63,906 bases of DNA, filler included, from Sphacelaria rigidula (GCA_964200075.2; 11 parts of 11 records of this genome joined end to end with filler, not necessarily neighbours in it), one strand, 5' to 3'. Shown: positions 331-58,042, numbered from the whole stretch's first letter. The notes: generated by a model not told the origin, from the letters alone. Program-made: numbers and translations.

Positions 331-563
331 TGAAAATGTCCTCAATATCTCCGCTTTCATCGTCGGCATCTGACGCACGGAGACGACTTCCAAAGTTCTG
401 TTCCGTTAAAACGATCGAGCCATGTTCCACGCCTCTCCGTGTAATTGATTCTAGAAACAAAAAGCAAAAAAGACACTACCGTAGTAAAACGGGCCAGCAC
501 AACGATCCCAACATCGAAAATGTTGCTCAGTTTAGTCCATGCGCCCCCTGACTGCAACATCCA

Positions 564-630
564 TGCTCCGTCTCGAAAGGGATGCGTGGTCAATGGTCAA
601 ACGACTAAGGCAAACAACAAATGAGTACGC
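564..630 (+). mobile_element. Short C-tailed element, family A, with ~15-bp target-site duplication
   Basis: TGCTCCGTCTCGAAAGGGATGCGTGGTCAATGGTCAAACGACTAAGGCAAACAACAAATGAGTACGC, flanked by CCCTGACTGCAACAT at 546-560 and 630-644. Confidence 0.75.
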
Positions 631-796
631 CCTGACTGCAACATTCCATTGGTCGGACAGCTCGTGAGCCACCTAAAATTACTACTGTCATCAAAGAGGA
701 CTCTCAGGCCCCTTGTCTAAGACGTACGTGACAGCGGGTCGGAGAAGCCAAAGCGCTACCTTTTCGTTACTCCCTGTGCTCGGTGTCTAGCGCTTT

Positions 797-3373: not shown

Positions 3374-3590
3374 ATTGCTGCTGGTGCTGGTGCTCCTGTT
3401 GTCTTTACATTAATAATCGTTCCGATATCTGCGCGGTACATAAGTACTGGGCATCTGATGCGGACGCCTTTCGTGGTCAATTGGCACTATGTGAGAAAAA
3501 ATCCCAGATCGCTCCGAGATTTGAGCCTACGACCTAGCCGTCAGAGGGTTTCGAGATTTCCAACTGAGCCACCGGGGCGGGGCGACCGGC
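3337..3590 (-). mobile_element. tRNA-SINE family 2 short variant with (CAA)n tail
   Basis: Head GCCGGTCGCCCC..GGTGGCTCAGTTGG with a B-box-like motif and a different body (CCGATATCTGCGCGGT...), also seen at ~50868-50970. (TTG)n tail. Confidence 0.7.
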
Positions 3591-5304
3591 TATTATACTC
3601 GATAAACGCAGTAATGCATCGACAGTGTGAAATATCAATGGTCAAACTGTGCGTGTTTGGCGCATATTTACGTCGGCAACGTCACTATATCTTGCCGTCC
3701 GGGTTAGGTTCGTCGCCGATCAGGTCATGTAGAAAAAAACGATCAGTTGATCAATCGGTCCTTGGATTTCAGGCCACTTTCGGCGCCCGACACGCACCAC
3801 TACAGCAGGGCCAAACGGACGGCAACGAGTTGCGGTCGAACGGGGAGTTTTGTGATCACATGGGCACTCCATTTTCAAAATCATCGCAAAATCTGTCTCA
3901 CTCGAAGCGTGCTTCATAAAAGTAACGTGATTCGAGCCTGAGGAGTGTGATGCGGTTTAAAAAGCACAAGTTCTCCCTGATCATAGTGGACATCATTTTC
4001 CCGTGCTTTGCACTTGCTACAAATAAAAAACTTCCTACTGCAGTGCTGCTACGATTCGTGAGCGAGTGGTGCCACGGAAGGGATTCACAATTATGGTGTG
4101 AGGTTCGAGTTTTTTATAGCCCTGTATCTCATCCAAAAACGACAAATGGAATACGCCGCGATTAATTAGCGTTCCACTGAGCAAGGGAATCCCGAATGAG
4201 TTAGAAAACGGGAACGTCCTCACCTATATTCTGGTGTAGTAGCTCCCAACTTTAGGATCCCCTGAATAAAAATAGATTTGAGCCCAAATGTGCGACCCCT
4301 ACCGGAGGATGACTTAAGCCTTAGATTCAGTTGGAGAATGACTCAAGCTTGAGATTAAATTGCCCTGCTCACTTCGAGGCTCACCTGAGCTCTAGCACCA
4401 GCCGGCATCTCTTCTTCCTGCTGCCAACGGTCCATGATTATCTGAGATCGATCGTTCCGCAGGCAGATAGACCATCATCCGAACATGAAAAACGAATAAA
4501 GGATGAACAAAAATATCGTCGTGAACAATGCATGTTCAGACAAAAATCAGTCTCCAAGATATTTCTGCGTCGCTGCATACATGGATCGGGATGCGAGGAT
4601 AGGTGGTAGGGCAATAGGTTTTCGGAACTCATGCTCGGCCAACACGGCAGCACGTGCCGGGCCACTCATGGCGAAAACAAAAACAAAGTGTTTGCAGGCG
4701 GTGTCAATGCAGCATAGCCTTGAAAATATCCGGTCAAAGTCTTCGTGTGTACGCATTTGGCGCGGAAACATCTATTATAGTGCAAGTGCACGATAATCAC
4801 GTGATGCCTAGCCATGTGAAGCCTAGGACTGCCTAGAGTTGTGTCTGAAGCAGGAACACTGAACAAGAGAAGATTACAACTCTTGTGTGCGTGATTCGCG
4901 GAGAGCTTCTGCGGGCTTCAGGCATGACGCTCACCATGTGCCATGTCAATAATGATTAATCATCTCCTGTAGTTGCTCGCCCACTGCCATTGTATGCAAT
5001 CGGCGGCTACCGGTACGTGTGAAGCGAAAACATCGGCCGTGTTTTGACCCGATGATGAGAGCGCGTCGCGAAATTCAAACAGTGGTCTTTATCGTTTTGT
5101 TCGATCGGGAAAATTGTTCAGTGAGACAAACCCTACGCTAGCCCGTGAAAACGGGGTCAACAGCTCCCCTGCTTTACATCTTTTGTGCTCTCTCTTGTCC
5201 GTCCCGAAGTTCATGGCATACCGATAGGTTCGATACCGCACGCGTGAATGAAAATCACCGGGCTTACTCCAGTCTAATGTGGAGTTTATTTATTATATGT
5301 GTAT

Positions 5305-5651: not shown

Positions 5652-5719
5652 GGGAGGGGGGGGGGGCGTATTCATTTGTTGCTTGCCTTAGTCGTTTGAC
5701 CATTAACCAAACATACCAT
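5652..5719 (-). mobile_element. C-tailed element family A, partial, at contig end
   Basis: G-run followed by CGTATTCATTTGTTGCTTGCCTTAGTCGTTTGACCATT. Confidence 0.7.
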
Positions 5720-8946: not shown

Positions 8947-9575
8947 GCCGATCGCCCCAGTGGCTCAGACGGTAACCTCGAAACCTTTTGACGGTTGGGA
9001 TGTGGGTTCGAATCTCGGGACGATTGGGTTTCTGTCACACCATGCTCAAGAATGTGTTGCCATCTCATCTATTTCTGGACGCCAGTCTACACCTTCCGGT
9101 ATATGTGGGCACACTAGCCGGGATCACACAGGAAGAAGGTCAACACAGAAAATTTTCGCTTTTGTTTTGTTTCAGTCCTCCACCTTCTTTCTGCGGCGCT
9201 TGCCTTTATTTTTTATCGCGAGAGGAGTTCAGCAGTCCCTCTCCCTCGTCGACCATTGAGTCGAATTTTGTGTGCCGACGACATTGTCGCTCTCCACTGT
9301 TGGGCATTAGAAAAGCTCCCAGATCGTTCTGAGATTCGAGCCCACGACCTAACCGTCAGAAGAAGGTGTCGAGCTTACCAATTAAGCCACCGGGGCGACC
9401 GGCTAGAGTGGAGAGCGACTATTCGTGCGTACACGAAGTTCGACTTCACGGTCGACGAGGGGAGGGACCGCTGAACTCTTCTCTCCGTAAAAAAAAAGAC
9501 AAGCACCGCAAAAGGAGGGTGGAGTTCTCGAAAACAAAGATAAAAAACTCCTGTGTTAGCCTTCCTCTATGCGGT
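8947..9575. mobile_element. Cluster of three tRNA-SINE family 2 pieces (8947-9045 +, 9062-9403 -, 9407-9575 +)
   Basis: Heads GCCGATCGCCCCAGTGGCTCAG...GGTTCGAATCTC and its reverse complement. Body segments lie in both orientations. Confidence 0.75.
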
Positions 9576-12068: not shown

Positions 12069-13042
12069 ATTTCCCTTTCTAGCATCATAGCACCTCTCGC
12101 ACACTCTGTCACCTTTTCCACATTCTCCATATATTTCCTCCTATTCCCGTTTTCCACGTCTTTTATTACGGCCCACTTTTCCGTACTGCACGATACACCT
12201 TTTTTCGTAAGTCTAGAAAGACACAGTACGTCGTTAGCCCGGCGTCTTTCCTACCTTGAATAATCTTACCTAACGTGTGCACATGGTGTGCGCAGCTACA
12301 ATTTGGTCTAAACCTGCTCACCCCTCGCTGATTTTTTCTTCCGTCTCCAGCGCCGTTCCCACTTTATCGTGTAGAACCTTTGCATCACGTTTTCCCCATG
12401 GTGCTCAGTAGCGTTATCCCTCCATAGTTCCCTGGGTCAGCCTTGTCTCTTTTCTCAAAAAGGTTCACTACTGCTCCTTCTCTCCACATCTTGGGTTGAT
12501 ATACACTTTTCCCCAGATCCAATTATAGAACATAGCGATCATGGTAATATTTCCCCCTCCTCCGTGCTTCATAAATCCGTTCACTATTTCGTCTGCCCCT
12601 GCTGCCTCTCTCTTCTTGAGTTTAGCTACACACTCCTTTACCTCCTCTCTTGTGAACTTTCCGCAATTTTTTCAACCACTGCCCTTCCGTTTTTGTGTCC
12701 ACACTTCCCTTTGCCCACGCGTTGGTTTCTTTCTCGCACTCCGCCTCGAACTCCTTGCTAGTTGTTGGCGTTCCTAGTTTTCGGTAGTGCTTTACCAGCA
12801 TCTCTCTCTTACGCTTCGAATTACGAACCATTTTACCGTTCTGCGCTCTTGGTTTGGTCGTTCCCCTTACCCACCTCCCCTGCCTGTTTACCCGGTATCC
12901 CTTCTATCCCTGCTCACATTTACTTCCTCCCACCACCACAATCTTCATGTGTCTCATTAAAAACATCATCCTATATTCCCTTAATTTTCTCCACCATCTT
13001 TGTACCTCTTTCATAGCTTTGTCATACTCCCCCACCCCACCG

Positions 13043-13157
13043 GTGCTCCGTCTCGAAGGGGATGCGTGGTCAATGGTCACACGACTAAGGCAAGCAACAA
13101 ATGAGTACGCCCCCCCCGCCCCCCCGCCCCCCCGCCCCACCCCACCCCACCCCACCG
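13043..13157 (+). mobile_element. C-tailed element family A inserted in the LINE
   Basis: Full 68-nt body, then a C-rich tail. CCCACCCCACCG is duplicated on both sides. Confidence 0.8.
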
Positions 13158-13732
13158 TAGTTTTTTTTCGATGCATATTTTGCGTGGGCCTCTTCCCTTA
13201 CTCCCATAGCCTCTGTTAGTTGCTTTTCCCATCATTCTTCTGCTCTGTTGCGTACGATCATTTGTGTCTCTCTATGACTTTACTCGCTGTGGTCTTGAAC
13301 AGTTGCTCCTATAATTCTACAATCTTCGCTCGTGTCCGGCCTTTTTCTATTTCGGTATTAGCTGTACCTGCACTTTTCAACAGCTCGCCAGATTTCATTG
13401 CAATTTAGGCCATCTCTTTGTAGACTTCTTGGCGTTTTTCTCATACGCCTGGTATAAATCTCCATTTGGCAACATTCCTACCCTGCCAGGTTTTCATAAT
13501 TCTCGTATGTTGGCTGTTTGTCCATACCAGGCAATGATCCATAGCTGATACGTCCGCTGCGCATACAGGTACGTTCATTTCCCTACTACTTCCATGTTTT
13601 ATCCCTAATAGTCAAGACTGGAGTTTTCTCTCATTGGTATGCAGTGTCTACAATAATTCATCGTTGATCTGGCTTTCTTATTTTATCGTGCAACGTCGTC
13701 ATCTCGGTATCCTCGAGGATCTTCACTATCTC

Positions 13733-14116
13733 TGTGTTGTGTGTGTGTGTGTTGCCATCCCCTCCATTCCGCACACCAGTATACACCTTTCGGTATATGT
13801 GGGCGCATCAGCCGGAGTCACACAGGGAAAAGGCCAACACAACAGTTCTTTATTTTGTTTTAGTAATCCACCTTCCTTCTGTGGTGCATGCCTTATTTTT
13901 TACCGCGAGGGGGGCTCAGTAGTTCCTCTCCCCCGTCAACCGTGAAATAGAAATTTTGTGTACCCACGGCATAGTCGCTCTTCACTACTGTTGGAGAGGG
14001 TGTGAGCAAAATTCACAGGAAATGCGACTTCACCGAGAGTTGAACCCACAACCGAACCGTCATACGGTTTCGAGATCACTAAATGAGCCATCAAATGAGC
14101 CATCGGGGCGGCCGGC
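13733..14116 (-). mobile_element. Full-length tRNA-SINE family 2 inserted in the LINE endonuclease
   Basis: Head at ~14030-14116, shared body, (GT)n tail at ~13734-13752. Confidence 0.75.
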
Positions 14117-14359
14117 TCTCTACCCAAATCTCATTCCTCTTCTATTCCCCATATTGCCCAATGCTATCATTCGGTCGGCTTGCGTTTCCAATCCTTGCAT
14201 TGAAATCTCCCACTCACATAAACTTCTCGTTGCACTTGATACTTCTGTGCATCTGCTGCTATCTCTCCGAACATCTCCTCCATATCGACTCTGGGGACAT
14301 ACAGATGCTGTCTGAGAGAGAACCTTCCGCTCCCCGGTCTCCTGGTACCCTTATCCACA

Positions 14360-15498
14360 CAGGCTGGGTCAAGGGCATCACCCTGAAAATATTCGTCTGC
14401 AAAACTTCGCGCCGTTTGTAGGAGTTAGACCCTGAAGTTTTGCACAACCGTGCAACGGACCATTACAAAAGTTTCGATGAACGATATTATTTACTTGTTT
14501 CATCGGTTTTCGGGGGCCCCGGTGTTCTCGGGGATCCTGGACCCCGAGGGGCCCCGAAAACGGGATAAGAATCGAATAAAAAATCCCTCGTCCATCGGAA
14601 CATTTTAATTGTCCATCGCACGCGTGTGCTAAATTTTATGGTCTAACTGCTGAAAACGGCGTGCTTTTTTCTGCAATGAAGTGAGCTTGAAACGTGCAAA
14701 CTTCTAACTACTTGATTTCAGCAAAAAAACATATTTATTCGGGGATCTGTTGAGAAAAAACTGTATAAAATTGTGCGGTTTTTGCCACCAAACTTTGTAT
14801 ATGTGTTCCTTGAACCACCCGGGACGCACAATTGTAGGCTTTTTTTTTTTTTGTGGAGAATTCTGTACCGTCTCCCGGGGGGGGGTTCGCGGTGGGACTC
14901 CCGGAAGTCGGCAAAGAGCTGAGAATTGTTTTGGAATGTATCGAAAATAAGTTGTCAACAATTCGTTTTTTTTTTATATGGAGCACCAATACCGACGGAA
15001 CTGCCAAATGTGAGGGCGATCCGAGCTCTTCTTCAACAGATGTAAGGTAAATCTTCCTTGGTCTTTCGTGACTATCATACATCATCAGTGGAAATCCGAC
15101 GACGCCAAAACCCCACATTACTTAAATTCCATGGTTTGGGATATAACACAACCTCATAGTAACCGTTTTCAAACCTTTTGTTTCTCTCGGTGTTTTCCGT
15201 CAGATTCCCGAACTTCTGGTGATCACTACGATACAAAGGTTATGGAAATTGGGTAGAAATTTGGCTGAGAATTCGTGATTTCAACTTTAGAACAATTTGA
15301 AGGGCGCTGATTGGTCGAGGTATCTTTTCGCCCTCAGCATCACCGGTATGTATGGCCTTGAACACAAAGACCCGGCTATGTCACCCTCTTTGCCCGTTCA
15401 TTGCGGTCAGTATGATACCATGTGTGTGACTATTGGGTACGTCTTACGGAAGACATCAGCTAATGACATAATTTTGGGTAATATGCGCAACCCAGTTG
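14360..15498. mobile_element. Non-autonomous TIR element (~1.14 kb) in the LINE endonuclease, with an internal foldback at ~14408-14664
   Basis: Imperfect ends CAGGCTGGGTC..GCATCACCCTGAAAAT / ATTTTGGGTAATATGCGCAACCCAGTTG-TA. Excision restores FDESLWIR. Confidence 0.65.
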
Positions 15499-17276
15499 TA
15501 GGCTCTCGTCGAATCTTGTGTCCTTGAACTCTTCTGCTATGTCATACAGGTATTCCTTGACTAGGATTCCTACTCCCTGCGCTCCCCTATGCTTGCGTTT
15601 CGGTCCCTTCCCCTCTTTGCCTATCCATGCGTGCTCTTCGACCTTGCATGCCATTTCCACCCTATATTTCTCCCATGACTCTTGGATTTCCACGATATCT
15701 AGGTCACCCTTACTTCCTTATTCGGCTGTCTCTATTATTTTCAGCTTGTCCGTGGCCAAGCCACACACGTTTCATCACCCTATTCTCAGCTTCCTTTCGA
15801 ACTACTGTCCACTTTGGTTGTGTCTGTTGTTCTCTCTTCCCGATATTTTCACGTCTATTTTATTCTTCCTTGCTTGATATTCCTTTCCGTTTCCGACCCG
15901 GTCCTCGTCTGTTTGTTTTGGGCCGCTATTCCCCTCCCCCCTCCTTTCCCTCATGGGGATTTACTTGTTCCTGCTTGCCCTTACCTCCGTTGACACGAGG
16001 GCTACGTCTCAGGTTTGCTATTCCATTGGGTATGCATACTCTCACGACCGTACCCCTCTCACCCATGCTGAATTTTTACTTGCCTCTACCCTCACCCATC
16101 CCTTGCTCGCTCTCCGTTATAGCATGACTCGGAAGTGTTCTCCCTCCATGTTTACTTTTCCTATTGCCAAGCGGTATAGTGCTACTTCATCGTACTTTCT
16201 CTTCAACTTTATTCTCGTCATATCACCAGGGACCCCATACACTAGCACTACTAGTACTTTACCGGTCCACTCTCTATCTTTCTCCATCCACCACTCCTTA
16301 CCGTCGCTCTCTCCATCTCTTTTGAGAGTATCTCCGGCTTGTTTGTTTCCAGTTCTGCGGTGGGATGTAGTCAAGGTACTGGGATATCTCAACCCTTGTA
16401 CTTGTTGGGGGGCTGGTGTCTTTCAATTCTTTTTCTGGCTCTCCGATACTGAATAGTATCTCCAACTCAGGCTCGTAGCCTGAAGCCAAGTCCAACATCC
16501 TTAGTACAAGTACCCCGCGTTTGAGCCAGGCGACCCGCGTAGTAAACCATCCAGACGCCCCACGATCGTATCCTCTATCGTTTTATCCCGCTGCCGTACT
16601 GCTTACTTTCCTCCAGGGAGTTCATGTTCACCGTGTAAGGTTCAAGGATGGCTTGCATAACAGGAAGTCTTGAACATCGGGACATCACGTTCGCCCAATC
16701 TACTTACGTTTCACCATGAGTAGCTGCCGCACTAATGCTCCCGAGTAGACCTTCGCTGTCGGAAGCTTGGCCAACGATTCCCCTACATTTTGTATTCGCT
16801 TCTATCCTTCAAGATCTCAAGATATCCACGTACTGCCTGGTGCTTGTCTTATTTGGCCATGTGGTCAGTCATTGACAAGGTGCTCGTTTCGTGAGTGCAG
16901 TAGTAGGTCTTGATGGTTTTGTCATGCACCTTACATCCTTTCCCTTCACTTGCGAAGATCTCATGTTTGGATTACGTGCTTCCTCACCAACAGCATGTAC
17001 TCTATCAGCCTACCGCAGGATTTACGGCATCGATCAATCTCTCAACGTGGCACGGGGAAGCCCAGTCAATCTAGATTTTCTGGGAGGGCCACATCACCGA
17101 GAGTTTTGTTTGTAAACAACAGCTGATCGAGATGTCTTCTAAGCGACGGGATCGGATACCATCTACGGGCCTTGTGTGTGAAGAACATCGCCTTTTTTTT
17201 GTTCTTGTCTTAACTCAGATGATATATTCCGTGACTCCCGGTGATATTAAAGGTATCAAGAAGAGCATTACGCCCT

Positions 17277-17323
<47 letters not shown>

Positions 17324-23276: not shown

Positions 23277-25155
23277 GGCTTGATTTACAGCGCCGTTGCC
23301 ACTCGACGCCAACCCAAGAGTCTAGAGGTGAAGGGAAACGGGGGGGGGGAAGTGGCCTACGTGTCCGAAATGTTTCGCTCGACAGATCCTTGGATCGCGT
23401 GCACATTTTCACGGATTACCGAAAACTTGTGTATATTTTCAACCCGGAACCGTGCGTTACGTCTATGACGAAAGCATTGGCACAACGTTTGGAGGGTTGG
23501 AAAGCTGTTCTTGGCCAGCACCGTTACTCGAATTGCCATATTTCGGTTGACCGTAAGGCGTGGCTTGACTTGCTTTCGCGCTGGGTAATATTCTGGCTTT
23601 TCCTGTGCGCGCTGTGGCTGTGTATGGCCTGTGTGAACCTGATGACTCGATGCCGTCCAAATCTGTTGTTCGCCAAGCGCAACGAAAAGACCTTCGGGGC
23701 CGGAGATGCGGATGTGCAATCTTTCGAGTCGGACGTTGGTACTGCTACCTTGGACAGTAAGGGTCTGTTTCGTGTGCATATGCGTGGCCGAAACGTTTCG
23801 TGGATTCCGAGTTCTGACAAGCGGTTGCAGGTACGTCTGATGATTTGCGCGCACAGGCCGACGCCGGGCATCGTGGTGTGGCTGCGACGCTCGTGTGCTT
23901 GCAAGAATCCTGTGTCTAGCAGGGGATAGAAACTCGTGTGCGCGAATTTGTTCGCCAGTGTCTTCACTGTGCTGACTCGAGGGCGGGAGATGCTGTTCTC
24001 CGCTCGCTCGGCGAAACGGTCCATGGGACCACGCCGATTGAAGTCGTTCATTTTGACTTCTTGTACGTGGGCGAGAGTGGCCCGCTAGCTTCCCAAGGTT
24101 TGTCGGAGGATGCTGGGTTTCGATACATTTTGATAATCATGGATGATTTAAGCAACTTTGTTGCTCTGGAACCAGTAGCAGTGTGTACTGCTGAATCGAC
24201 CGCTGCATCTGTACTGAATTGGTGCAAACCTTTGGGGGCGCCCCGTGTGTGGGTGAGCGATACCGCCACGCATTTCAAGAATGCAATCTTGGCCCGATTG
24301 CGAGAGGCTTTGCGCGTTGATCACCACTTTGCGGTAGCGTATTCTCCGTGGTCTAACGGTACGTGCGAACGCATGGTCAAGGAAATAGTTCGTGCTCTTC
24401 GCTCTATTCTTCTTGAACAGCGTAGAGCGGTTTCCGAGTGGATGGACGTGTTGCCGGCGGTGAAATTGGCGCTTGATACAGCGTATCGTCGTCGTTTCGA
24501 TAGTACGCCGTACCACGTGATGTTTGGTCGTGTCCCTCGGATGTCTTTCTCGGTGCTGGTGTCTTCGTCGGCGGGGGAATGGAAGTGTGCTGTTTCGGAC
24601 GATGTTCAAATTAAGAGTGCATTGCAAGGAGTCCTGAACTTGCAAGAACCTTTTCGCGTTCAAGCGCAGGAACGTGTTGCCGCTGAACGTGCGCGTAGAC
24701 ATGAGGGGTCCTCGTGGGGGCTGGAAGTGTCGAATTTTGAGGCAGGCGACTATGTCTTGCATGCACGCGTGCGTCGTCCGGGCGTTACGCCCAAGTTGAT
24801 GGTGACTTGGACTGGTCCGTGGTGAGTGGTTGGTGCTCACCACCCACACGTGTTTGAGATTCAAAACATTGTTTTGGGGCGTGTTCAAACCGCCAATGTA
24901 GCTCGTTTGCGTTTTTATGTAGACTCGCAGCTCAATGTTACGGCTGACGTTAAGGACGTGCTCCAGCATGCTTTCAATCAGGGGCAATTTGAGATGGCTG
25001 GTATTGTCCCAGTGGCAGAAGCAGATAATCGTTCCTTGATGGTGTTGGTCGACTGGGTTGGTTTCGAAGTTGAGGAGCGTACGTGGGAACGTTTCAAGAA
25101 TATTTTTGAGGCCGCTCCGGAATTTCCTACGAAGGGGTGCGTACATTGCGCGTGA
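23277..25155 (+). pseudogene. Ty3/gypsy pol remnant: RNase H, integrase (HHCC, DDE, GPY/F) and chromodomain-like C-terminus
   Basis: FTDYRKLVYIF...QRLEGW...DLLSRW (RNase H); ICAH..GHRG..CLHC; VHFDF..SDTATHF..YSPWSNGTCER; PKLMVTWTGPW; LVDWVGFEVEERTWE. In-frame stops and frameshifts. Confidence 0.92.
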
Positions 25156-27515: not shown

Positions 27516-29160
27516 TAGTGTGCACAGCCGTAAAGAACTAAGCAGCAGCGCCTGCCGACATGCAACCAAACTGCATGTCGTGACAACTTGCGGCGAGAAT
27601 AAACAAAATGCGCACCGATTCTTTTGAAATTTGCGATGTTGGACCTCTGTGATCATCGCGCTAGACACTAGTCCTCAACCCAAAAGTGCCGATGGCGCAA
27701 CGCGTAGAACTCGGTGACGAAGCAGAGGATTGGACTGCCGTTTCTTGCGTGCGCTTCCCACACCCCAAGCTAGGCCAACCTACTTCACTTTTTCGTTTGA
27801 GCGTGAAACTGAGCCGCAACAAACCCAAACGTACAAAAATGAGGTGTTTCGCGCTCTGGGAGGGGGTTTTCCCGCTGCTGGCGCGACGCCGGGAAAATGT
27901 GAAATAGCTTCTCCTAGATCTTGTGTGTATGCGGGGGGGTGTGAAGTGCCGTAGGCTGGCTTGCTTCCTGTGTCGAGAACCGCGCGATCTCCCGTGCTAG
28001 AGCTGTCCCATAGTAAATCAAGTTTATAAGTGATGGAGCGTGCGTTCTGCTCGAGAGGGCCTCGGCACAGGTGCGACGACCTACTGACGTGTTCATTACT
28101 CCTGCGCACTTATGTTTTTTTAGTTTGCCGCTGATTTTTGGTCGTTAGGCCCTCCAGTCCCAACCTTAACAGTGAAATTCGTGAAACGGGACATGATCTA
28201 GTGTTGTTCCTTCTCAACGTTATGGAGGCATTGTACTGAAATTTTAATTCATCATCCGCGGCGTCAATCGAAGACGGTTATACTCTAAGGCCTAAAATAT
28301 GCTGAGACTAAAGAGGGCGGACGTCCTTGGAAGCGAGGTCTCCACACCAGCACGGATACCTGGCGCTACAGACCAGCTTTCGCGCGTTTGACAGCCGGAT
28401 GGGAAAGGATGCCTATCACTACGAATGCAGAAAGCGTTTATTGCACGATATGTGTTAGAGTATTTGTAAGTTGACACTGTGTGTTCCCAGTGCCAGTACA
28501 ACGAGTACTGTAGAACTGACTGTATGATGCGAGCCACGGCTCGACAGGGCTAGAATACCCGCGATCCATTCGTGTAAAAAAAAACAAATTGCAACTCGCG
28601 CTCTGTTCTACTATGTAACCACGCGCCTACCAGAGAACGGTCAATATCTTCACGTGGGAGCACACTACGGAAGAATATCTGATTGATTCTGATAAAAGAA
28701 AACTACAGCAACTGCCCTTGTCATTTTCAGACCGTCGTGGTAACGCCCAAGCTAGGTCTGGCACTGTGAGGGAGGAGATGTTGCCCCCTGACCAAGCAGG
28801 TCCGCAGTGGCCCTTGACAGAAGACACTCATCTCCTTGGCTGCGTTGTGGGGCCGCGTCTTGCTCGGCACGGCGTATAAAACTCGTGGGTACCTGCCTCT
28901 AACATATGGAGAACCTAAACTAGCGTTTTTTTTCCGGCCTTGGTGCTAGTCTCGACCAACAGGGGGGCAATGTAAACAACAAGGATGGCAAGATCNNNNN
29001 NNNNNNNNNNNNNNNNNNNNNNNNNNNNNNNNNNNNNNNTTAATTAATTAANNNNNNNNNNNNNNNNNNNNNNNNNNNNNNNNNNNNNNNNNNNNCGGTA
29101 GCGTCGCCGGGCGTGCCGGCGGGGGGCGCTGGGGGGGGGGCGGGGGGGGGGGGGCGGGGG

Positions 29161-29349
29161 GGGTCCTCATGATCTTGGGTGCCGTTCTCATCATCTTGCA
29201 TGCCGTAGTCGTAAGACCATTGACCTCGCATCCTTGCAAAGCCGGGACGGAGCACGCCCGATTGTCGCCGGACCAGGCGGGGGGGGGGCATACTCATCTG
29301 TTGTTTGTCTTAGTTGTTTGATCATTGACCACGCATCCCTTTCGAAACA
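29161..29349 (-). mobile_element. Tandem C-tailed elements: family A (29281-29349) and family B (29161-29278)
   Basis: Both bodies lie on the minus strand, each ending in a C run (G run on plus). Confidence 0.7.
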
Positions 29350-30584
29350 GGGGGGGCGGGGGGGTGACATGGGGACAGCCGCCTGCGCAGAACAGCCGAA
29401 AAGCTCACCACGTCAACCATGTGTGTTTAGAAGTTTCCCACGGAAAATCGTAAGCCAGGAGCGAGGCCCGGGAAGAGCAAAGTGATCATTCTGAGCAATC
29501 ACGGTTATCAAATTGGTATTTTTGTTCCCCTGCAGGTGGGTTACAAATAGACTACTTCGCTGTCTAGTAGTATTTCTCATGTTGGTACCGATAATTCAAC
29601 CACAGATATCACGGGCATGATCAACGTGATTTTCATTCTGCTCGTGTTCTTTGCCGCCTGCCTGACCCCTCATGTATTGCCAGCGTAGCTTCACACTGCC
29701 TGTAGTGTTGTTGTGTAACACTAAGCAGAGGCATCAGCGGCATCAAGTAGACTGTGCTCAGTGGAGAGCGATGGCACACCAACTGTTTCTTGCCGTTGTA
29801 TCCAGCGAAGGCATATAGCACACACACACTGACTCTGCACGCATTTGACTGCCGGGTCAGAACCGGTCAGGGGTTCTCCGGGACCATTTCTACGTAGATG
29901 CCCCACATCAACATCAACATGTTTTTGACAAAAGGGCGTTTTGTGTATCGAGGAAACAGCTGTTCTGAACCCAAAGTGTAGCACAGTCCATCTGAGTTCG
30001 TCTGAGTAGGGTTCGCCGTCCAAGGGTCAAGTAGTTATGCAGCAACCATTTGACCAACAACAGCAACAACAAAACCAACAACCTACACCAACCAAGTCAA
30101 CACCTGAACCGGTTTACCGGAATTTCCTTCCCCAAGCCCATGATTTTGACACATACTCGTCCATATCAAAACCCAACCCTATGCTCAAGCCTGTGAAGCA
30201 AAGGCCAAGCCTAAGCATATCGAGAACCCTCTGGTATGGCGCGTGCAGCTGCAGCGCACACTGTGGAGCACGTGGGGAACCGTCAGGCCTAACGAAGATC
30301 CGAATCTCTGTGGTTCGTAACACTGAAATCGAGAGCATTTCCCTCAGCCACGGGTGTTTGGGCTCGCTTCAACTACTATATTGAACACATCGACGACGGA
30401 TCCCACACGGTTGGTTGCCTTTGCACGGGTGCTGATGTTCTCAAAAAGCGCGAGCTGTACCGTACCAGTATACATTTTTGCTTCGGGGTGGGGGGGGGGG
30501 GGAGACTACTCATCATATGGGTAAGTAAGATGACCTCTAACCTCGGGAAAAAAAGCGGCGGCATTCACCCAAGTCTGAACACAG

Positions 30585-33310: not shown

Positions 33311-33675
33311 GTTTGAAAGGGAAACAAAAATGCGCGCCAAACGGGTCAAACATTACGCCCTTGCCGTATCTTCCATCTCTTACTCATCACGTATAACATA
33401 GTTCCATAACCGATACAAATATACAACCTTTGGCTCAACCTCTTGGTAGTAGGCATTGCCTGTACCACCTCCCAATTTAAATGACTTCCTTTCCACGCCT
33501 ATCATGGAGGACGGGGCCGCCGATAGGCGGCCCCGTCCGATCCTTGTAGATATTAAAATAAAAATTCCTTTTTTCGAACTTTTTTTTTAATCTCATCATC
33601 TGTCCCGGGGTTTTCAGTTTTTACACCCGCCGGTGGCAGCAGCGAATTTCGGGGGTGGATTGGTGGGTTGGTGGA

Positions 33676-33770
33676 GGGGTACTCATGGTTCTGCATGCCG
33701 TAGTCATTGGACCGTTGACCGCATCCCTACAAGCCGGGACGGAGCACGCCGGGCTTATGCGGGACCAGGC
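33676..33770 (-). mobile_element. C-tailed element family B
   Basis: Minus strand GCCTGGTCC...GCGTGCTCCGTCCCGGCTTGTAGGGATGCGGTCAACGGTCCAATGACTACGGCATGCAGAACCATGAGTACCCC. Confidence 0.7.
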
Positions 33771-34759
33771 TCGCAATCAATCACCGAGCGCGAAGCGCCG
33801 TGATGTGTTCAGCGAGTTGCATGGAGGATGACCTGTATCATATTATACTACCATTGTCCGGCCCGAAGTTTACCTAGTATTTTGCAACGGGGAGGGGGGG
33901 GGGGGGGGGGTCAGTTGTACTATGTCATGGCCCACAGTTTATTTTCTACTCCAAATTAGTCCGACAGAAACAGTACCAGCGATGGCACTGCACAGCCTGT
34001 CATCGCTTGGTTCGCGAATGCCATGGAATGTCACTTGTGCACATCCTCGACAAAAGATTATATTGCCAAAAAGGGTACTGCGCACAGCATAGAATATATC
34101 GCCTATTGCAATAGACGCAATAGTCGATACTGTACGCAGTATAATTTTTCATGATGTATTCTATCGTCCAGGGTGTGCACTTGTGTCTGGGGGTGCAGTC
34201 AGACCCTAAAATAGATGGAGAACAACGCAGCGGCAGAGTTTTCTTCACAGCCGAGAGAAGGAAACCATGCGGGAGGCAAAAGACCCAGCAAAAGCGACTC
34301 TTGGCAATGTGCGGAGAATCAAACGTGCACGGCAAAAGAGCCGGTTCTATTGCGTCTCCTCTCCTCGTCTGCCGCTTTCATGTTCAGAGCTATGATTCAA
34401 AAATTAAAATTCTGTCGATGTTGGCGCATTTGCGGCCGTACGAAAAATTTCCCGCCGAAGACAGAATAGTTAGCTCTTTGAATCCGCGGATTTCGCTTCA
34501 CAGCTGCCGAGCGAGATTCCGCTACTACTTCTTGTTTCTGTGCGCTTTCAGGCCCTCTCGGATTTCCCGGTATAGTCGTGGAGAAACATGAAACTATTTC
34601 AGGTGTATACCGGCTGCGCCGTCGGCAATGAAAAAGATATTTTGCCCTCTAGGCAAATCAGACGGCCCCAGTTGAGATTCATAATGTTACGAATGTACCT
34701 GAAGATGTCGAAAGAGGTGCTCAGGTATGTACATATACTCCCTCCCCCCCCTCCCCCCT

Positions 34760-36735: not shown

Positions 36736-37849
36736 CCCTTGTCGAGGAAGGATAAATGGCCCCGTAACCGCGCAGGGTTTTCTAGCGCACCATGTCCCCC
36801 CTTATCAGTGCAAAGTGTTATCTTTTGCTGTACTGTGGAAATAATACTCGAGCTCGAACATTTTGCCTTGTAGAAGAGACCCCTTTGGACACAGCCCACG
36901 TGCCCGTTCCTTATGCCGCTGCCCTGGCTGCTTCGTAGCACCCCCCCGATCTGGTCAGATATCAAGTCGTACCCCCCCAACACCGGTTGTATCGTAAGCT
37001 TGACTTGAGTTGCTGCGACACACCGTCCGCATCCCTCGGCGATGCGACGAGCGATGAGCTCTTTTCGGCGGATTTCAGAACCCTAATCCGATCTGGTCAG
37101 ATATCAGATCGTAGCCCCCCCCCCCCCCTCCTCTTTGCTGCATTGTAGCCCCTCACAGGTTTTGGTATCGTGTTTCTTTATGCTGAGTGAGCCTTATTGG
37201 TGACTGCGTTTCTAGTACCCGTAGTCACATTTCTTGTCGCTGTCGCATCTCTGTCCGTGTCCCCTGAGTATCTAGTGTTATTTTATTTTTGTTTTTTTCT
37301 TCGAGGTTTCTTTTCGCGATGAGACGACTGTAGGTTTAGTCCAGCCTCCTAGATGTTTGGAATTTTGATGACTCTTTTTCTGGATGTGTTTGTTGTTGTC
37401 AGTACTCAACCCCCCGCCGCCAGCCAAGAGAGCTCGCCGCACGGGAGTATTCCCTTACATCGTCTTGTTGCACGGGTCCTTGGTTACACCGTGTACTGCT
37501 AATGATACCGCCCTTGTTGTAGACCGTATTGATGCCCGACGACTGTTTCAGGTTGAAGTGAGTTACTGCATCTCGACAAGTTATCTGGATGTGTTCGCTT
37601 GTTTGTTCTACCCCTATCCCGTGGTGCAGCCTGGTCAGCTGGCGACACGAGTGTGTCCTCTTGTGTCGTTCCGTTGCTCGTGGTCCAGTGTTCCCCCGGA
37701 AATGACCAATCATACCGCCCTTGCTGTAGGTCGTATCTCCGCTGGACGATTGCTTTGAGTTGGGTATTGCGTCGTGACGTTTATTATTATTATTTGACAT
37801 CAAGTTTTGCCCATAACACGCGATAGTTGATCCGCCGGGCTGAACGAAA

Positions 37850-38330: not shown

Positions 38331-39620
38331 CACGTAGCTACAATGTTTTCCTTTTTGTGGATTGAACGTTTCATGATGTGTCGGATCGCAGCGATGCTCG
38401 CCTTTTAGAGGTGTGGGAGAGTGATTATTTTTTTCTTCGCTTCATGCTTTTGTACGAGTGTAGCGTAGAAGAGCCCTTTCTCGTTGAATTTTCAAGTTCC
38501 TCGGCGCAATTACATTGTGCCGAGGTGATGATGATTCAACTGCATAAGGACTCGTCTAGGATGGGCTAGTGTGATGACGCCCGGAGGCGTTGCAAGATAT
38601 ACGCTGTACGGGTCTGCTCGTAGACCCTGAGTTCCGTAACGCGTTGTTATCGCGCTTTCTATTGTCATTGGTTGGGACTGTTCCGGCTTCGCCATAGGGC
38701 GTTGACCCATCTCAATCAGTTACCGGCTTGCCTTGGTCTCTACCCTTGGCCATCACTACGCTCTGCTCCTATGGCTGCGCCCCGGCTATACTGAGTAAGA
38801 GAGGCTTGTGGATATAACATGACGCTATGAAACACGTGAGTTCCTGATCAACAGTCTGCACATGGATGAACCTAGTTTGTGATTGTTCTTGGTGGATCGC
38901 TATAGGTCATACGTTGTGCCCACGTGGGAGCTTGGGTTAGCTGGAACCAATGGTATCTCCTGGTACTGGTGCTGAGAGACCTCAGCCAGTGCATTAGCTG
39001 CACCCTCATTATAACAATATACTATTAATAGTATTAGAATGAGATGCAAACTATGCGATGTTTGACAACAGTTCCAGCGGAGAAGCCAAGGCGCGAAGAG
39101 TGACTTTGATTTCAGACTGCGCACCCTGTATGCCTAGGTCCGCAGAGCCACGATGTTGAAATTGTTCAAATTCACTGCAGTTACGTTGGTGTGTAGCTGC
39201 CACAACAGCTGCTGTTCGTGCTCTTGTCTTGTTATCTTCGCAATGACGGTAAACGTGGGGTCGCAGCTCGGGGGCGTGTGCTTCCCGACTGGTACAGACA
39301 AAGGCAGGACACTCGCTAGTGCAACAAGATTGTCCATCTACTGATGTGGAGCGAGCTTTCCAGAGGAACAAAATCATCTCAACACCGACCACTCCCAGAC
39401 TTGAATAAATGTACTAGAACTGTAGTTCATTTCTCATTAGCCAAATCGTCATTTGTACGTGACGCTTGTATTTTCCGTTGATACTGTATGACTCGTTAGA
39501 TCACCGGCCACTTCTGACGCAGGTAGCGTTCAGCTTGCACTTTCCATGAATATAGTACCGAAAATCTGCACTTCCTACCCACAACGGTATTGTCTAATTT
39601 TTAGCCGAGAACGAAACTGT

Positions 39621-39827
39621 TGTAATGCGTGAGAGGACCGCGTGCTTGGAGGACCGTGTCGGAAGTTGAACATCCCTAGGGTTGGGGTTAGGGGGTCAGG
39701 GTTAGTGTTGGGGTCAGGGTCGTGGTACCTGCAGGGACTGGCCCGAATGGTTTTGGAAAACGTCGATACTGAGGTGTTTCGAGCTACAATGCGGTCCTCT
39801 AAGCACACAGTCCTCTCACCCACTACA
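39621..39827. mobile_element. ~200-bp inverted-repeat element with internal TTAGGG-like repeats
   Basis: TGTAATGCGTGAGAGGACCGCGTGCTT...AAGCACACAGTCCTCTCACCCACTACA. Copies at 53062-53254 and 57300-57498. Confidence 0.8.
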
Positions 39828-41134
39828 CTGTGACCTACGGAAAACGCAAAGGTGCTCTGGAACGGTCTGAGGTGTCAACATCCGCTGAGCCCTCTTCCCG
39901 GGGCAAAAACGATGGAGAAGGATCAAAACAGCACTTTTCAACAAGTTATTTTTTTCGGTTCATGACAAGTATAACAAGTAGCCTAACAAAGGAAAACGAA
40001 AATAGAAAATTGGAAGTGCGATTGCGAAGCAGAGCAATCTATACTGTACACAGTCTGTGTCGTCAGAGCATCCATGCAATCGAGCATGCGTGTACTATAC
40101 ACGGCCGTATACCTGCAAATAGGGACACTTGTGAAATCACACCATCATTGTACTACAAGTACACTACCGTTGTCTGCTGTCTGCTGTTCTGACTGTACAC
40201 TCTGTACAGAGGACAACGGACAACAACAGTAGTACAGATGCATCATGCAGATATATCCTCGAGGCCCTCAATTCCTGCTGCAAGAGGACAATTCATTCAT
40301 GACGATTGCGTTCGTGCTGGTGGTTTGTGTCTGCAGTGAACATAATCTTGTGCACCCTTGGGAGGCTGAAGCCTCCGCTGCAAGATGATCGATGAGTCAA
40401 TTCATGATTGTCTTCGTGCTGATGGTGTATGTCTACATATCTCCACGCACTCCTACTCTAAGTTGTACAGTGACGCGGTGTAGCGTACGGAGTAGCGCTG
40501 CGCAGCAGGTTAGTTGCCAATTGTCGCTACGAGTATACATACGTTATGGGTCGGCCGTAGGCCTTTAACAACAAATTGTGCGAATGGAGGTTTAACTTCG
40601 AGATGAGGCTCAAGCCTAAAACAGTGCTTTCCCNNNNNNNNNNNNNNNNNNNNNNNNNNNNNNNNNNNNNNNNNNNNTTAATTAATTAANNNNNNNNNNN
40701 NNNNNNNNNNNNNNNNNNNNNNNNNNNNNNNNNAGGATGTCTGACACACTTATGAGCCTCGTTTTTCGTGCAACCAAATACCCCCCCCCCTATCGTAGGA
40801 TGACTCATGAGCCGACTTGAAGTAGGCTCGTTGGACGTGCACAAGCCACAGTCCATGGGACACATGATTATGATTCAAGGGACTGGGCAATAGCAGGCAT
40901 ATTGTGAGATCATACATGATCGATGACGCTCAACTGGTTTGGTGGCAGATGCACCAGATGCATCAGATACATCGTAGGTGTACCACTAGATCAAAATGTG
41001 AAAAAAACATCTTTTGGTCACGTGCTCAGGAGTATCCGCGGATGCTCGCCCGGCACGGTCTGCTGCTGGAAATGTGGTTGAATGGTAGATCGATTGTCGA
41101 GGAGAGACATTTTTATACTCTGGACCCATGGGGA

Positions 41135-42456: not shown

Positions 42457-45164
42457 GCTCAGATCCCTAGCGTCTGTCGTATGTAAGCAATGCTCGCCAC
42501 GACAACTGGCCAGCACTAGTGACTCATTTAAGTGTGTACCTTTGCTACGTTGGAAGGAGGGATCATTCGGTGTGCTATGTCGAACCATGTCCTTCTTTAG
42601 CTGGTCGAATTCTGCCCCACTAGGCTGCCGTGCAGCAGACTTTGTGTAAAGCGGTGACGCCGATCCCCCCTTCTTCGAGTTACGCATAGATTGATCAGGT
42701 CCAGCATGTACCACAAAGGCGGAACTAGCACCCCACGTTTTTCGACACCCCCAAACAGATCGTACCCTACCTCATTGCCAAAGTCTGACACTTTCTACAG
42801 TAGCCCCCCCTAAGAAACAGCCTAAAACTGTCACGAAGAAATGGCCATACAGCGCCCGATGTTTGGTTTCAGGCTGCATGAAGCGCCTCATGTGGGCGAC
42901 ATTGGCGAAAACGAACCCAAGCGTTAGAATTCTCAGCTGCTCACCGTGCTCGGGTTTTTCATTTCGATTCACATGTAAATCTTACCTCCCTAAACCAACC
43001 ATTTCTTTTTTCGGAGGGGGGGGGGGGCTATCGTAGAAAGTGCCCTCCGTTCTGTCCGGGAGGGAGATGACAGCAAGTTTGCTATATACAGCAGGTTTAG
43101 CCTGCTGTGGAACAACTGACAAAGGCGACAGACCTTTTCGAGTTCGGCGAGCACCGTTGTTAACTGGCAACCGTGCTACCGATAAAGCGACAAGATCCTT
43201 ACCGTCGCTTCCTCATTTTCTCGCTGGGGCCGGTATCGGTGAAATACGAGCGAAACTGGCGCTGCCACCGCGCCCATTTCTGGCGGACCTCGTCTGGGGT
43301 ACCCTCCACAGGCGAACGAGTCACACGTGACATCACATCTGCAATTCGCGCAACAATACTCGGCGCCGGTAGAGCGTCGGGCTCCAGGCACCTTTGTGTT
43401 TGGTCACGCTTCGGAAGCCCGTCTCATCCAACACCCGGCCGGCTGCTCGCCCCCGCCGCCCTACCGCCGCCGTACGGCGGTGGAGCTCCACCGACCTGAT
43501 CGTTCCAGACGGCATAGCGAGCTAGCAAGCCCACCTCCCGCGTAAATCAACTCTCGCTGGTGTCCCTCCAAGTCCTGAAGGGTGCGGTCTAGGGGATATG
43601 TGGCTTTCAGCGCCCAAATCTCGCGCATGGACACGCGCATAGACACCTCCTGCGGGCACTGCTCACAGCATAACACAATGTTTGCCTCCTTCAGCCCTGC
43701 CAACGGCAGCTCCACCCCTGGAGGTCCCCCCAATCCCGAGAAGTATCCCCCCCCCCTGCCGCCCTCGCCACGGCCGCTGGTGCATATGTGGTCAGTATCG
43801 GCAGCCTACTCCGGCAAGCGGGCTGACTGTCTCTCAGCGTCTGCTGGAACCACGAACAACAATTTACGCGGGGTTCGCCGAAAGACTGTGAGACCGGCTG
43901 CTCCGCCGCGACCGCCAATCAAGGTCGGCCGAACACTATCTGACACATTCCTCACCACCGTTACTCTCGTTACGAAGACGGATATTTCCAACATGAATTT
44001 AATCAAATTGCACGTCCTCACCTGATACCGAGGTCGCACTCAACCTACGAACCGGCGGACGTGTCATCGCCTTTTGACCTCTACTCACCAAAATGGCGTT
44101 GCTAGATTTTGGGTCCACCTGAGCCACAATCCCGTTTCCAAGCCCACGCCCTCGATCGGCGATTGAATCGTCGTTACATCACAAGCCAAACACCCCACCA
44201 CCGACTACCGGTACGCCCTCATGAGGAGAGCCGGCGTCAACCTCGCAAACCAAAATCTCCCTGCCTTCCATACCAGTTCCCGGCAGGATTGATCCCGTCG
44301 AACCCGTCTCACCCTCTGGCGACGGAGGGGAGTTCTCTCTGGCGTGTATCCCCCGGTTTTCACCAATAACATCAGCCAACGACAAATCAGGCACATTCTC
44401 TGAGGTCGACCCGCCGCGACCAGGGGAGTCAATGTTCAACTCCTCCTTCCCCGCGGCTCGCGCCGCGGCACGTCGCCCGAGAGCGCCTGGAAGTGTTACC
44501 GCGCCGGCCCGCTGGGACTACGTAACCGGACCTTTCTTCCCACCCTTACCAAGAGTAACATCTGCACCTGACATCGTAGGCAGCACGCACACCAGCTAAA
44601 GGCACATCCCCGGCGAGAAGCAGCACAGCGGACTAATCGACGACCCCACTCCGAGGGAACCTGCGATTCGCTCTCCAGGAATTGAGATTCCTTGTCCTCA
44701 CAAGTAAATTCTTGTGTCTTCGGCGCTGAGGCGGATCTGCAAACCAGATCGGAGGAGAGCTCCCGGGACGGTCGCAGCAAAAACGTACTCGTGGGAGCGT
44801 CAAAGAAGATGTCTAGGCATTGTGTTCGACTGTTCATTAATGATGATTTGCTACACACACCAGATTCCTTGCTGAGCCAAGCCCAAGGCTTGAGGGTTTT
44901 GTGAGAACTGGCAAGAGTGGGGGTGCGCCAAACTCAACGTTCCACACGCAAAGCACTCAGTAGAATTGCTCATTACACCTGCTGGCGACATTTCACCCCC
45001 TACTTTGACAGTTACGTGGCGCACTCTTTGTCCACCAAGGTCCCCAGTCCCAACAACTGAAACGCCTGGAGATTGTCTAAGCCTTCGGTTCTATAAGCCC
45101 TCTCCAAAATCAAATTGTCTGTGTCTACTACCCTGAAATTATCATCCAGCCAAGTCTCTGCACT

Positions 45165-45790
45165 TTGGCCAAAATTCCAACGGTACGGCGTTTCAAGAAA
45201 CAGGGCCCGCACGAATGCGGCTACTACTGCGGTATTTATCTCGACTTCCACGTGGGCAAGGTGGCACTCAAGATAGTTGCGACTTGCCTCAGCGCCTACT
45301 GCGAGTGGAAGGGAATCTTTCCGGAAGCACAATGCAGCTTTCGATCCGGCCGGTCGACAGCCGACATGATGTCCGTTGTGCACAGGCTCCAAGAACTGAC
45401 CAGAGAGAAGAATCTACCACTGTGCATGTGCTTCAATGACCATCAAATGACATACGACTCAGTGCATTGCTCTCTGCTCTGGAACGTCCTAGCACGCTGC
45501 CGTATCCCCACATAGCTGATTTCCATCATCCGCCAATTCCAAAACGGCATTCGGGCATGCGTACGCCGTGACAGCGGCGAATCATCTGAGTGGCTGAATG
45601 TTTACCGGGGCCTCCATCAAGGCTGTGTGCTCTCCTCCGGTTTGTTCAACATCGTTTTCGCGGCGGTGCTTGCGGTGGCGTTCGACCACTTCTTGATCAA
45701 TGAAGCGGTGGCGCAGGACTTCATCCGCATCGCTGAAAGGAGCGGGAAGACCAGGGATAAAGCCAGCAAAGTGCTTTGAGCCATGCGATA
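45165..45790 (+). pseudogene. RTE-like LINE reverse transcriptase relic (the element probably extends upstream to ~43800)
   Basis: YCGIYL..HVGKVALKIVA..PEAQCSFRSGRSTADM..LQE..YDSV..LW, then GLHQGCVLSSGLFNIVF. Stops present, truncated just before YADD. Confidence 0.85.
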
Positions 45791-45794
45791 CACC

Positions 45795-46220
45795 AAGTGA
45801 ACGCGGTGTACACGCATGTCAATGACCATACCACCGCGGAAGAGCAACGGCGGAGAGGAAGAACTCGCCCGTGTCATTGGCTCATCCTCGTTCGGCGATT
45901 CGCAAACGCTAGAGAGATTGGCGTTATGTTACCAGCACACACCCGGTTTGCCATGTGCCCGCAGGCGGGTTATGGTAGCGCAGCCCCCACGACAAGATCG
46001 GAATGGCGAGGGTTGTCGTCTCTTGCCTGTGGCGCTGACCAATGCAAATATCGGTTCCTCTCTGGCTCTCTTTTTGGACAGGACGCACCTCTGTGCGCTG
46101 CAGAATACATCGTCGAAAAGCAAGGCGATATTCTCGTCGCCGCTATTGTTCTCACGGGCACCCATGCGAGCAAGGACGGTGTTGCGGCCATAAGGTCTAA
46201 TTGCCACTTGGGGGGTGTTA
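45795..46220 (+). repeat. Diverged copy of coding repeat family X
   Basis: GDSQTLERLAL...SLALFLDRTHLCALQNTSSKSKAIFSSPLLFSRAPMRARTVL. Confidence 0.7.
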
Positions 46221-51690: not shown

Positions 51691-52070
51691 CACACGCGGC
51701 CATTCGGCTACCCCCCACAATACTCTGTTCCGGTAAACGTTTTGAGCCTCCAGAGGAATTGAACGCCTCAAGGGGGTGCGCGGCCCTCCACAGGCGTGGG
51801 AATCAAACGCCTCCAGAGGCTTGTTTTGCCTCTGGAGGACCGCGCGTCCCTACGGAGGAATTTAGAGAATGCGCGGCCCTCCAGAGCACCACAGGTTTTG
51901 TTAGTCTCGGGGGATTCAGACCCCAGAAGTCACTGGAGCATCAGACGCCCTCCAGTCCAGAGGGTTCGTTTATGACCGCGCCTGAGATGAAATACCCTCC
52001 AGGGGGTATTTTACCCTCGAGATGATGAATATCGCGATAGAGGATGGGGGTAGCCGAATGGCCGCGTGTG
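51691..52070. mobile_element. MITE with perfect 25-bp TIRs and TA target duplication (Tc1/mariner-type)
   Basis: TA-CACACGCGGCCATTCGGCTACCCCC...GGGGGTAGCCGAATGGCCGCGTGTG-TA. Removal restores the host tandem repeat unit. Confidence 0.9.

Positions 52071-58007: not shown

Positions 58008-58042
<35 letters not shown>

Follow-up and report, generated by a model that had tools for sequence, protein, structure and literature searches.

The window, by which we mean the whole stretch of DNA analysed here (63,906 bases), comprises 11 contigs of 5719 or 5718 nt connected by linkers of the form N44-TTAATTAATTAA-N44. Such a layout is what one expects of successive contigs in a draft assembly sorted by size, so the pieces end at real contig ends. 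The DNA is eukaryotic and repeat-rich, and a Pfam search of its 333 six-frame ORF translations recognised only a chromovirus-type integrase with a chromodomain, an FNIP-repeat ORF and a decayed LINE-type reverse transcriptase (RT). The window also carries two families of short C-tailed repeats, family A (66 nt) and family B (~93-117 nt), which are listed with the other features in Table 1. The original prediction had placed them at nine sites, and a copy is present at 9/9; blastn, direct reading and a covariance model that was trained on six copies and applied to each position of the window gave the same set. The model recovers eight scorable copies and no further one in the window, its next best match being of 10.8 bits (E 1.8), and the copy density is ~1 per 7 kb of window. 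Element pieces of 31-34 nt gave three matches each at up to 3 mismatches, and none in 100 shuffles.

Table 1. Positions of the C-tailed repeats, their target duplications and the other annotated features of the window (model, covariance model).
Feature	Position	Strand	Evidence or remark
Left 15-bp target duplication of copy 1, CCCTGACTGCAACAT	546-560	+	
Family A copy 1, complete 66-nt tail-only unit	563/564-628	+	blastn; model 90.6 bits
Right 15-bp target duplication of copy 1, CCCTGACTGCAACAT	630-644	+	first three C's double as the only tail of copy 1
Family A copy, 5′ part lost at contig end	5667-5719 (element)	-	blastn, model; tail C11TCCC at 5652-5666
Left 13-bp target duplication of copy 2, CCCCACCCCACCG	13030-13042	+	
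Family A copy 2, complete	13043-13108	+	blastn; model 92.9 bits
Tail of copy 2	13109-13144	+	G+C8, G+C7, G+C7, G+C4, then A, CCCCA
Right 13-bp target duplication of copy 2, CCCCACCCCACCG	13145-13157	+	
Chromovirus-type integrase core and chromodomain	23920-25152	+	both below Pfam cut-offs; decayed Ty3/gypsy element
Family B copy 1 (B1)	29128-29278 (element 29163-29278)	-	model 75.1 bits; tail a ~35-nt G-interrupted C-run nearly to contig end
Family A copy	29276-29349 (element 29290-29349)	-	blastn, model; tail C10GCC
Family B copy 2 (B2)	33650-33770 (element 33679-33770)	-	model 71.4 bits; degenerate C-rich tail (CCCTCCACCAACCCACC...)
Family A copy, 3′ part lost at contig end	34760-34814	+	blastn, model; C-run just upstream (34744-34759)
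Family A copy, old and degenerate	50320-50399	+	model 15.7 bits, E 0.06; tail CCCCCACCTCCTCCC
B-like 3′ fragment of 20 nt (52251-52270; ..GATCATGAGTAC) with C-rich tail, at contig end	52231-52270	-	direct reading
FNIP-repeat ORF, 499 aa	55148-56647	+	Pfam E 3e-42

Copy 1 (564-628) encodes APSRKGCVVNGQTTKANNK and then TGA, and the CCA at 561-563 represents extra bases at its 5′ junction. The copy at 29349 has the same TG start, an internal gap of 5 nt and a C-run just upstream (29350-29364). The old copy at 50353 is clear over its last 32 nt (50353-50384), the model stretching the match weakly to 50320. B1 comes directly after the tail of an A copy and consists of a 24-nt head (GCCTGGTCC...) and the shared 3′ module, its terminal ATGAG-AC motif being doubled; the nested order at 29128-29364 is A then B, with C-runs. 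B1 and B2 have a common 5′ start (GCCTGGTCC...), longer than that of A, and the B head has no other occurrence in the window. Weak similarity over ~30 nt (TCGAAA..GTGCTCAG..) was also noted upstream of two A copies, at 514-560 and 34708-34756, each stretch ending in a C-run. The likeness is weak and only ~30 nt long; it could reflect a host element shared by the 564 and 34760 copies, which we do not claim, or chance.

All visible 3′ ends (10/10, eight of them in window copies and two in the external copies L004 and L039 described below) consist of a GAGTAC-like sequence (GAGTACG, GAATACG, GAGTATG, GAGTGCG, GAGGAC or GAGTAC) followed by a C-rich run and not by poly(A), just as had been claimed. 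Run length varies from 3 C's in the 564 copy, where they are also part of the duplication, to ~35 nt, and the tails are C-runs broken by single G's. The tail of copy 2 looks like the terminal G+Cn recopied by slippage or re-priming. Clear target duplications were found for two copies, of 15 and 13 bp, in keeping with the 12-15 bp proposed originally. Both start with C's, which indicates that the primer strand ends in G's. Neither B2 nor the 50353 copy has a target duplication, and two other copies stand between C-runs on both sides, where a duplication is unscorable. Of the four A copies with a readable 5′ junction, three have a C-run directly upstream (13043, 29349 and 34760), and copy 1 lies at no more than a C5 within unique DNA.

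The window contains 17 C/G runs of at least 10 nt, seven T-runs and no A-run. Several long C-runs (up to C44) follow unrelated sequence, at 17278-17323, 30483-30502, 33887-33910 and 37115-37131. A 15-nt motif, CACTTTCTACGAYAG, directly precedes a C-run in two unrelated places, at 58008-58074 (+, C34GCCGC28) and 43013-43027 (-); it may be the terminus of another C-tailed family, and there may thus be more than one such family here. The runs at 58008-58074 and the tail of B1 resemble each other. Three further repeats were observed. The first is a tRNA-like family at 3495-3592 (-), 9345-9402, 14046-14103, 52403-52460 and 58189-58246 (reverse complement ..GGTGGCTCAGTTGG.., with a T6 end), which is uncalled by ARAGORN and inside which two contigs begin; in the sequencing runs, the family A tail adjoins the C-rich 5′ end of this repeat in 8-9 contigs. 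A 43-44-nt tandem repeat (CATTGCTCGTTGTGGAAAAAA...) lies at 1-340, 50687-50870 and 52046-52166 and is very abundant in the sequencing runs, and a ~200-nt family with interstitial TTAGGG-like units lies at 39620-39828, 53061-53255 and 57300-57498.

External scans for family A, with an 18-nt core used on metagenome contigs, gave 16 loci and one true copy (L004) on those contigs, 33 loci and one true copy (L039) on prokaryote-labelled genome contigs, and no copy on viral contigs. The L039 contig is labelled as part of a bacterial MAG and is presumably algal DNA in the bin. In L039, an uninterrupted ORF of >680 aa runs into A, with RT motifs (GFRPNRS, FADD) and a CCHC knuckle. This ORF ends ...GAPSRKGCVVNGQMTKASNK-TGA (tail residues ...APSRKGCVVNGQMTKASNK), the TGA being the one in the element's AAATGAGTACG, and after it come GTACG, C13 and unrelated DNA. 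The module matches this LINE terminus at 97% identity. L004 has 107 open codons upstream of A and a C10 tail, and its C-terminal peptide has 35 protein relatives. The best named homologue of the parent is a protein of the brown alga Sphacelaria rigidula. A brown alga or a close relative is accordingly taken as the source; Physarum, which had come to mind for its homopolymer tracts, was set aside because of this homologue and of a sequencing run labelled as an algae metagenome. The 1360-aa protein P0002 contains Exo_endo_phos at 170-392 (an APE-type endonuclease) and RVT_1 at 740-989, and has the C-terminus found in family A; the solved structures nearest to it are L1 ORF2p and R2. Twelve proteins end with the same peptide as the LINE, and several others read past the stop into PPPP, which is the translated C-run.

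Judged by this sequence match, family A is the last 66 nt of an autonomous LINE, made up of the LINE's final 19 codons, its TGA stop and GTACG. We identified its parent as a single-ORF LINE of ~1360 codons with an APE-type endonuclease, an RT and a C-terminal CCHC knuckle, whose stop codon stands only 5 nt before the C-run. An autonomous LINE or Penelope element sharing the 3′ end had been suggested as a check, and it is a LINE that was found (the L039 ORF and P0002). The original prediction of a minimal non-tRNA retroposon is borne out in that no small-RNA head is present, but a separate origin is not, A being the last 66 nt of the LINE. The head of family B is absent from this LINE. A parent LINE of family B was not found; the peptide reading of B gave 14 candidates, none with E ≤10.

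Other LINE remains were also noted. A degenerate LINE at 12115-16272 (-), with ~49% protein identity to P0002 (aa 10-848), holds copy 2 in antisense; it is interrupted by ~1.1 kb between 14372 and 15493, and the start of the contig (11639) cuts off its 3′ end. A second and different decayed LINE-type RT lies at 45081-45812 (+; Pfam match at 45081-45776), reads FRSGRSTADM..., has one in-frame stop and ~29% identity to P0002, and is cut by the contig end at 46452, its tail lying outside the contig. Among the related proteins, the entries P0001 and P0010 show the LINE C-terminus fused to a lipase-domain gene model (P0001) in a brown-alga annotation and also filed under a bacterial MAG. Both cases suggest errors brought about by this repeat, one of annotation and one of binning.

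Families A and B may share a three-way junction fold: a closing stem GUGCUC/GAGUAC, a hairpin with the loop GAAA in A and a loop of 8-10 nt in B, and a second hairpin with a variable loop. Between A and B the predicted stems are unchanged and the loops differ in sequence and length, and the unit and its closing stem begin at the same base. No compensatory change was seen at the 20 pairs in six sequences (0/20), and folding energies are not beyond those of shuffles (z = -1.65, -0.22, +0.18 and +0.66). In the protein, conservation within the C-terminal 107 aa is highest over the final 19 residues, with a mean pairwise identity of 0.83 vs 0.51 at -61 to -107 (66 pairs, ungapped), and this conservation fits with an added RNA-level constraint.

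The statement that no tRNA-type A/B boxes are evident is consistent with our searches. ARAGORN called no tRNA gene, and Rfam gave no family at gathering score in the whole window and nothing at 500-700 with E ≤10. At 29096-29420, the only Rfam matches with E ≤10 are two C/D-box matches of 11 and 8.8 bits (thresholds 60 and 45), which were taken as chance. A classical SINE was rejected since there is no tRNA, 7SL or 5S head with a pol III promoter by either search; what the unit has of a SINE is a 3′ part common to a partner LINE (97% identity). The likeness of the heads to U6, 7SL and 5S is a passing resemblance by eye, with no support from Rfam. A self-cleaving ribozyme (HDV-like, hammerhead or hatchet) setting the 5′ end was considered, and Rfam gave no ribozyme match with E ≤10 at 500-700 or 29096-29420, which is weak evidence against it as such ribozymes are hard to find by sequence. 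In addition, a closing stem that pairs the 5′ with the 3′ end is unlike the topology of an HDV-like ribozyme, and a hammerhead-like CUGAUGA/GAAA core seen by eye is unconserved between A and B. A Penelope-like element was rejected because of the APE-type endonuclease, the nearest structures (L1 ORF2p and R2) and the lack of a hammerhead match. The features of a LINE 3′ terminus that were tested are all present, namely the continuity of the ORF, duplications of variable length and a simple-sequence tail.

As for the 5′ end, no more than one base separates the starts of the copies at 564, 13043 and 34760, and the 29349 copy begins at the same point. A common start is thus seen in 4-5 of the 5 informative A copies and in both B copies (2/2), so that the claim of nearly identical starts for full A copies stands, the 5′ ends in the window being unstaggered. 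No window copy extends into the LINE ORF (tblastn and blastn with the region upstream of A in L004; tblastn with P0002), and tblastn with the LINE C-terminus found no copy of intermediate length in the window. Contigs of four sequencing runs of the source (X1, X4, X5 and X6; three studies) were placed on contig 1 at 85% likeness, and >1000 contigs carry the element in these runs. Those departing from the reference just before base 564 number 1267, 1080, 321 and 194 (X1, X4, X5 and X6), counts that are confounded by the reference's own boundary, every longer copy also departing there. The upstream consensus at 564 is identical to the L039 LINE sequence at 30/30 positions in X5 and 29/30 in X4, with an agreement of 0.53 and 0.44, respectively. 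By our estimate, roughly a third to half of the genomic copies continue into the LINE ORF. Further out, the X1 upstream consensus is C-rich, and in X6 a C-run stands right before base 566 in 41 contigs. The contigs of X6, an RNA run by guess only, are not counted as a sign of expression. After base 632, 662, 687, 126 and 136 contigs depart from the reference in the same order of runs, with a consensus of 20-26 C's. Tandem joints from 632 to 564, 565 and 568 occur in 39, 11 and 6 contigs of X1 and in 35, 8 and 5 of X4, the units being separated by CCCCC or CGCC. Among the joints listed, none corresponds to an empty site at the 564 copy. The summed depth over 574-764 in X1 is 4.4 million, compared with ~66 in single-copy bins; this is not a copy number and shows very high repetition only. 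Taken together, the common starts, the absence of extension into the ORF and the tandem joints speak against random truncation and favour a discrete unit that consists of the tail alone.

We consider it highly probable that families A and B are the 3′-terminal module of C-tailed non-LTR LINEs, retroposed by target-primed reverse transcription (TPRT) at nicks in G-runs. The LINE-driven TPRT of the original prediction agrees with the LINE partner, the duplications and the C tail. Its other proposal, priming on G-rich DNA ends, was not upheld, as the APE endonuclease and the 13-15-bp duplications point to nicking inside G-runs and not to attachment to free ends. In the proposed mechanism, the LINE protein would bind the 66-nt module, which can be folded as a three-way junction closed by GUGCUC/GAGUAC, and the endonuclease would nick the bottom strand within a G-run. 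The freed ...GGG-3′ end would then pair with the C-run of the RNA and prime reverse transcription, and a staggered second nick would produce 13-15-bp duplications starting with C's. Module-only copies with one and the same 5′ base appear to form a very large class in this genome, and they could arise if a module-only RNA is mobilised in trans, or if synthesis regularly stops, or jumps to another template, where the closing stem has its base. Each insertion would create a new C-run and with it a new target, giving nested and head-to-tail arrays (A-Cn-A, A-Cn-B-Cn), and the growing, G-interrupted C/G homopolymers would break short-read assemblies. The preference of the endonuclease for G-runs (from two duplications), the recognition of the RNA fold and the origin of the short form are the parts of this scheme that we infer.

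Set against known systems, the element behaves as L1 and its passengers do, C taking the place of A, and it is also like the stringent LINE/SINE pairs described below. L1 has a poly(A) tail, a TTTT/AA nick site and Alu-type passengers. Like L1, the present LINE has an APE endonuclease and an RT, its primer would pair with the homopolymer tail, duplications start with the tail base and old tails are favoured as targets. Unlike in L1, the homopolymer is C and so cannot come from polyadenylation but must be templated or made by RT slippage; moreover, the ORF stops 5 nt before the tail, leaving no real 3′ UTR, and a small-RNA head is lacking in the passenger. LINE/SINE pairs of the stringent type (eel UnaL2/UnaSINE1, CR1) have a 3′ stem-loop and a short repeat tail. 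They resemble our case in the conserved 3′ module common to the LINE and the short elements and in a tail of reiterated units (here G+C7-8 three times in the copy with its tail from 13109), but here the unit repeated in the tail is in essence a single nucleotide, the 66-nt module makes up the whole short element and recognition of the fold is presumed. RIME/ingi, SIDER and the Entamoeba SINEs are likewise non-tRNA short retroposons from LINE ends with high copy numbers, although they are several hundred nt long with A-rich tails, and A is 66 nt and derives from the 3′ end only; RIME joins the 5′ and 3′ ends of its LINE. Tx1/R1 microsatellite LINEs (Kibi, Koshi, Waldo, Mino) also insert in simple repeats with a tail matching the target, whereas the preference here is for short C/G runs in otherwise unique DNA (C5 at copy 1), with no strict target. 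Finally, the telomeric Penelope-like elements Athena and Coprina share a C-rich 3′ end able to pair with G-rich DNA, but the present element has an APE endonuclease, a LINE-type RT and duplications, and no hammerhead motif. Listings from full-text searches on C-tailed retroelements and brown-alga transposons contained no poly(C)-tailed LINE or SINE, although 'poly(C)' in parentheses was possibly missed.

How the short copies arise allows other readings. That A and B are independent SINE-like retroposons, with unit-length RNAs of their own (66 to ~117 nt) that share the LINE recognition module, is a serious possibility, if somewhat short of an even one. The identical starts in the window (A 4-5/5, B 2/2), the tandem A-Cn-A joints starting at 564-568 in 56 X1 contigs, the 24-nt head of B that the LINE does not have and the copy density given above all speak for it, but neither ARAGORN nor Rfam (0 matches each) detected a promoter-bearing head, A has nothing that is not in the LINE, and a large share of the genomic copies run on into the ORF. 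Rather unlikely, in our opinion, is that the short copies are extremely 5′ truncated, dead-on-arrival LINEs whose common start reflects a hot spot of truncation or chance sampling within 63 kb. Three copies starting within one base and a fourth with the same start, the joints at 564-568 and the missing intermediate lengths in the window are hard to reconcile with it, even though A is a LINE terminus, severe truncation is usual in many LINEs and the 50353 copy is possibly shorter. Plain random truncation fits poorly with the common start; for the short copies, an own or processed RNA on the one hand and regular early termination or template switching on the other are about equally likely.

Two further explanations concern the C-runs and the contig ends. 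Of the 22 contig ends, four fall within a copy of A or B or within the tail of one (5719, 29096, 34814 and 52270) and two more are ≤35 nt from long C-runs (17357 and 58088); other contigs end at (TAA)n or T-runs. The original prediction was right that the element accounts for contig breaks, but the cause is an assembly effect and not G-rich DNA ends: contigs break at the element because very high repetition and homopolymers defeat assembly, and free G-rich DNA ends are not needed to explain the breaks. Endonuclease-independent capture at G-rich ends or breaks, in the manner of telomeric Penelope-like elements, would make these contig ends real chromosome or break ends, and a C-rich tail could indeed pair with G-rich overhangs. 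This is very improbable, however, as the partner carries an APE endonuclease, internal copies have 13-15-bp duplications in unique DNA, the fragmented assembly, of which the contigs are pieces sorted by size, has breaks at (TAA)n and T-runs too, thousands of run contigs continue beyond the element into unrelated sequence, and no hammerhead or other ribozyme match was found. Least credible of all is an artefactual origin of the C-runs, in sequencing or in assembly (no-signal G calls, for instance), next to an ordinary short repeat. Homopolymer G/C is a known class of artefact on some instruments, but the C-runs are internal to contigs, with the element on one side and unique DNA on the other, and they read as C without exception on the ORF's sense strand. 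They also recur in unrelated assemblies (L004 and L039) and as PPPP in read-through proteins, and four sequencing runs from three studies give a C-run as their consensus downstream of base 632. The reading we prefer remains a 3′-terminal LINE module moved by TPRT at nicked G-runs.

A wider reading, which we put forward tentatively, is that brown algae have APE-type LINEs with a poly(C)/G-nick logic and, with them, a 66-nt self-targeting retroposon whose 5′ end is set by an RNA event. In practice, the family explains one class of homopolymer tracts, and of contig breaks, seen in these assemblies, and repeat annotation should mask or model it, since its 19 terminal codons otherwise fuse into gene models, as in P0001. 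On the wider reading, the C-run of each copy would be the family's own target, making it the main source of long G-interrupted C/G homopolymers in these genomes. The 66-nt unit, amplified to something like 10^4-10^5 copies, may be the shortest retroposon known, consisting only of the enzyme's recognition module, which includes 19 codons and the stop of its parent; its exact 5′ end would come from cleavage or from obligatory template switching at the base of the closing stem. If it is mobilised alone, it would define the minimal template of the LINE enzyme. The question would also be raised of how a 3′ C-run is made and kept on an RNA with no poly(C) polymerase. Finally, a LINE lineage, apparently spread among brown algae, would have swapped the poly(A)/T-nick logic of L1 for poly(C)/G-nick, and would test the priming rule that a TPRT tail need only match the nicked strand, whatever the base.
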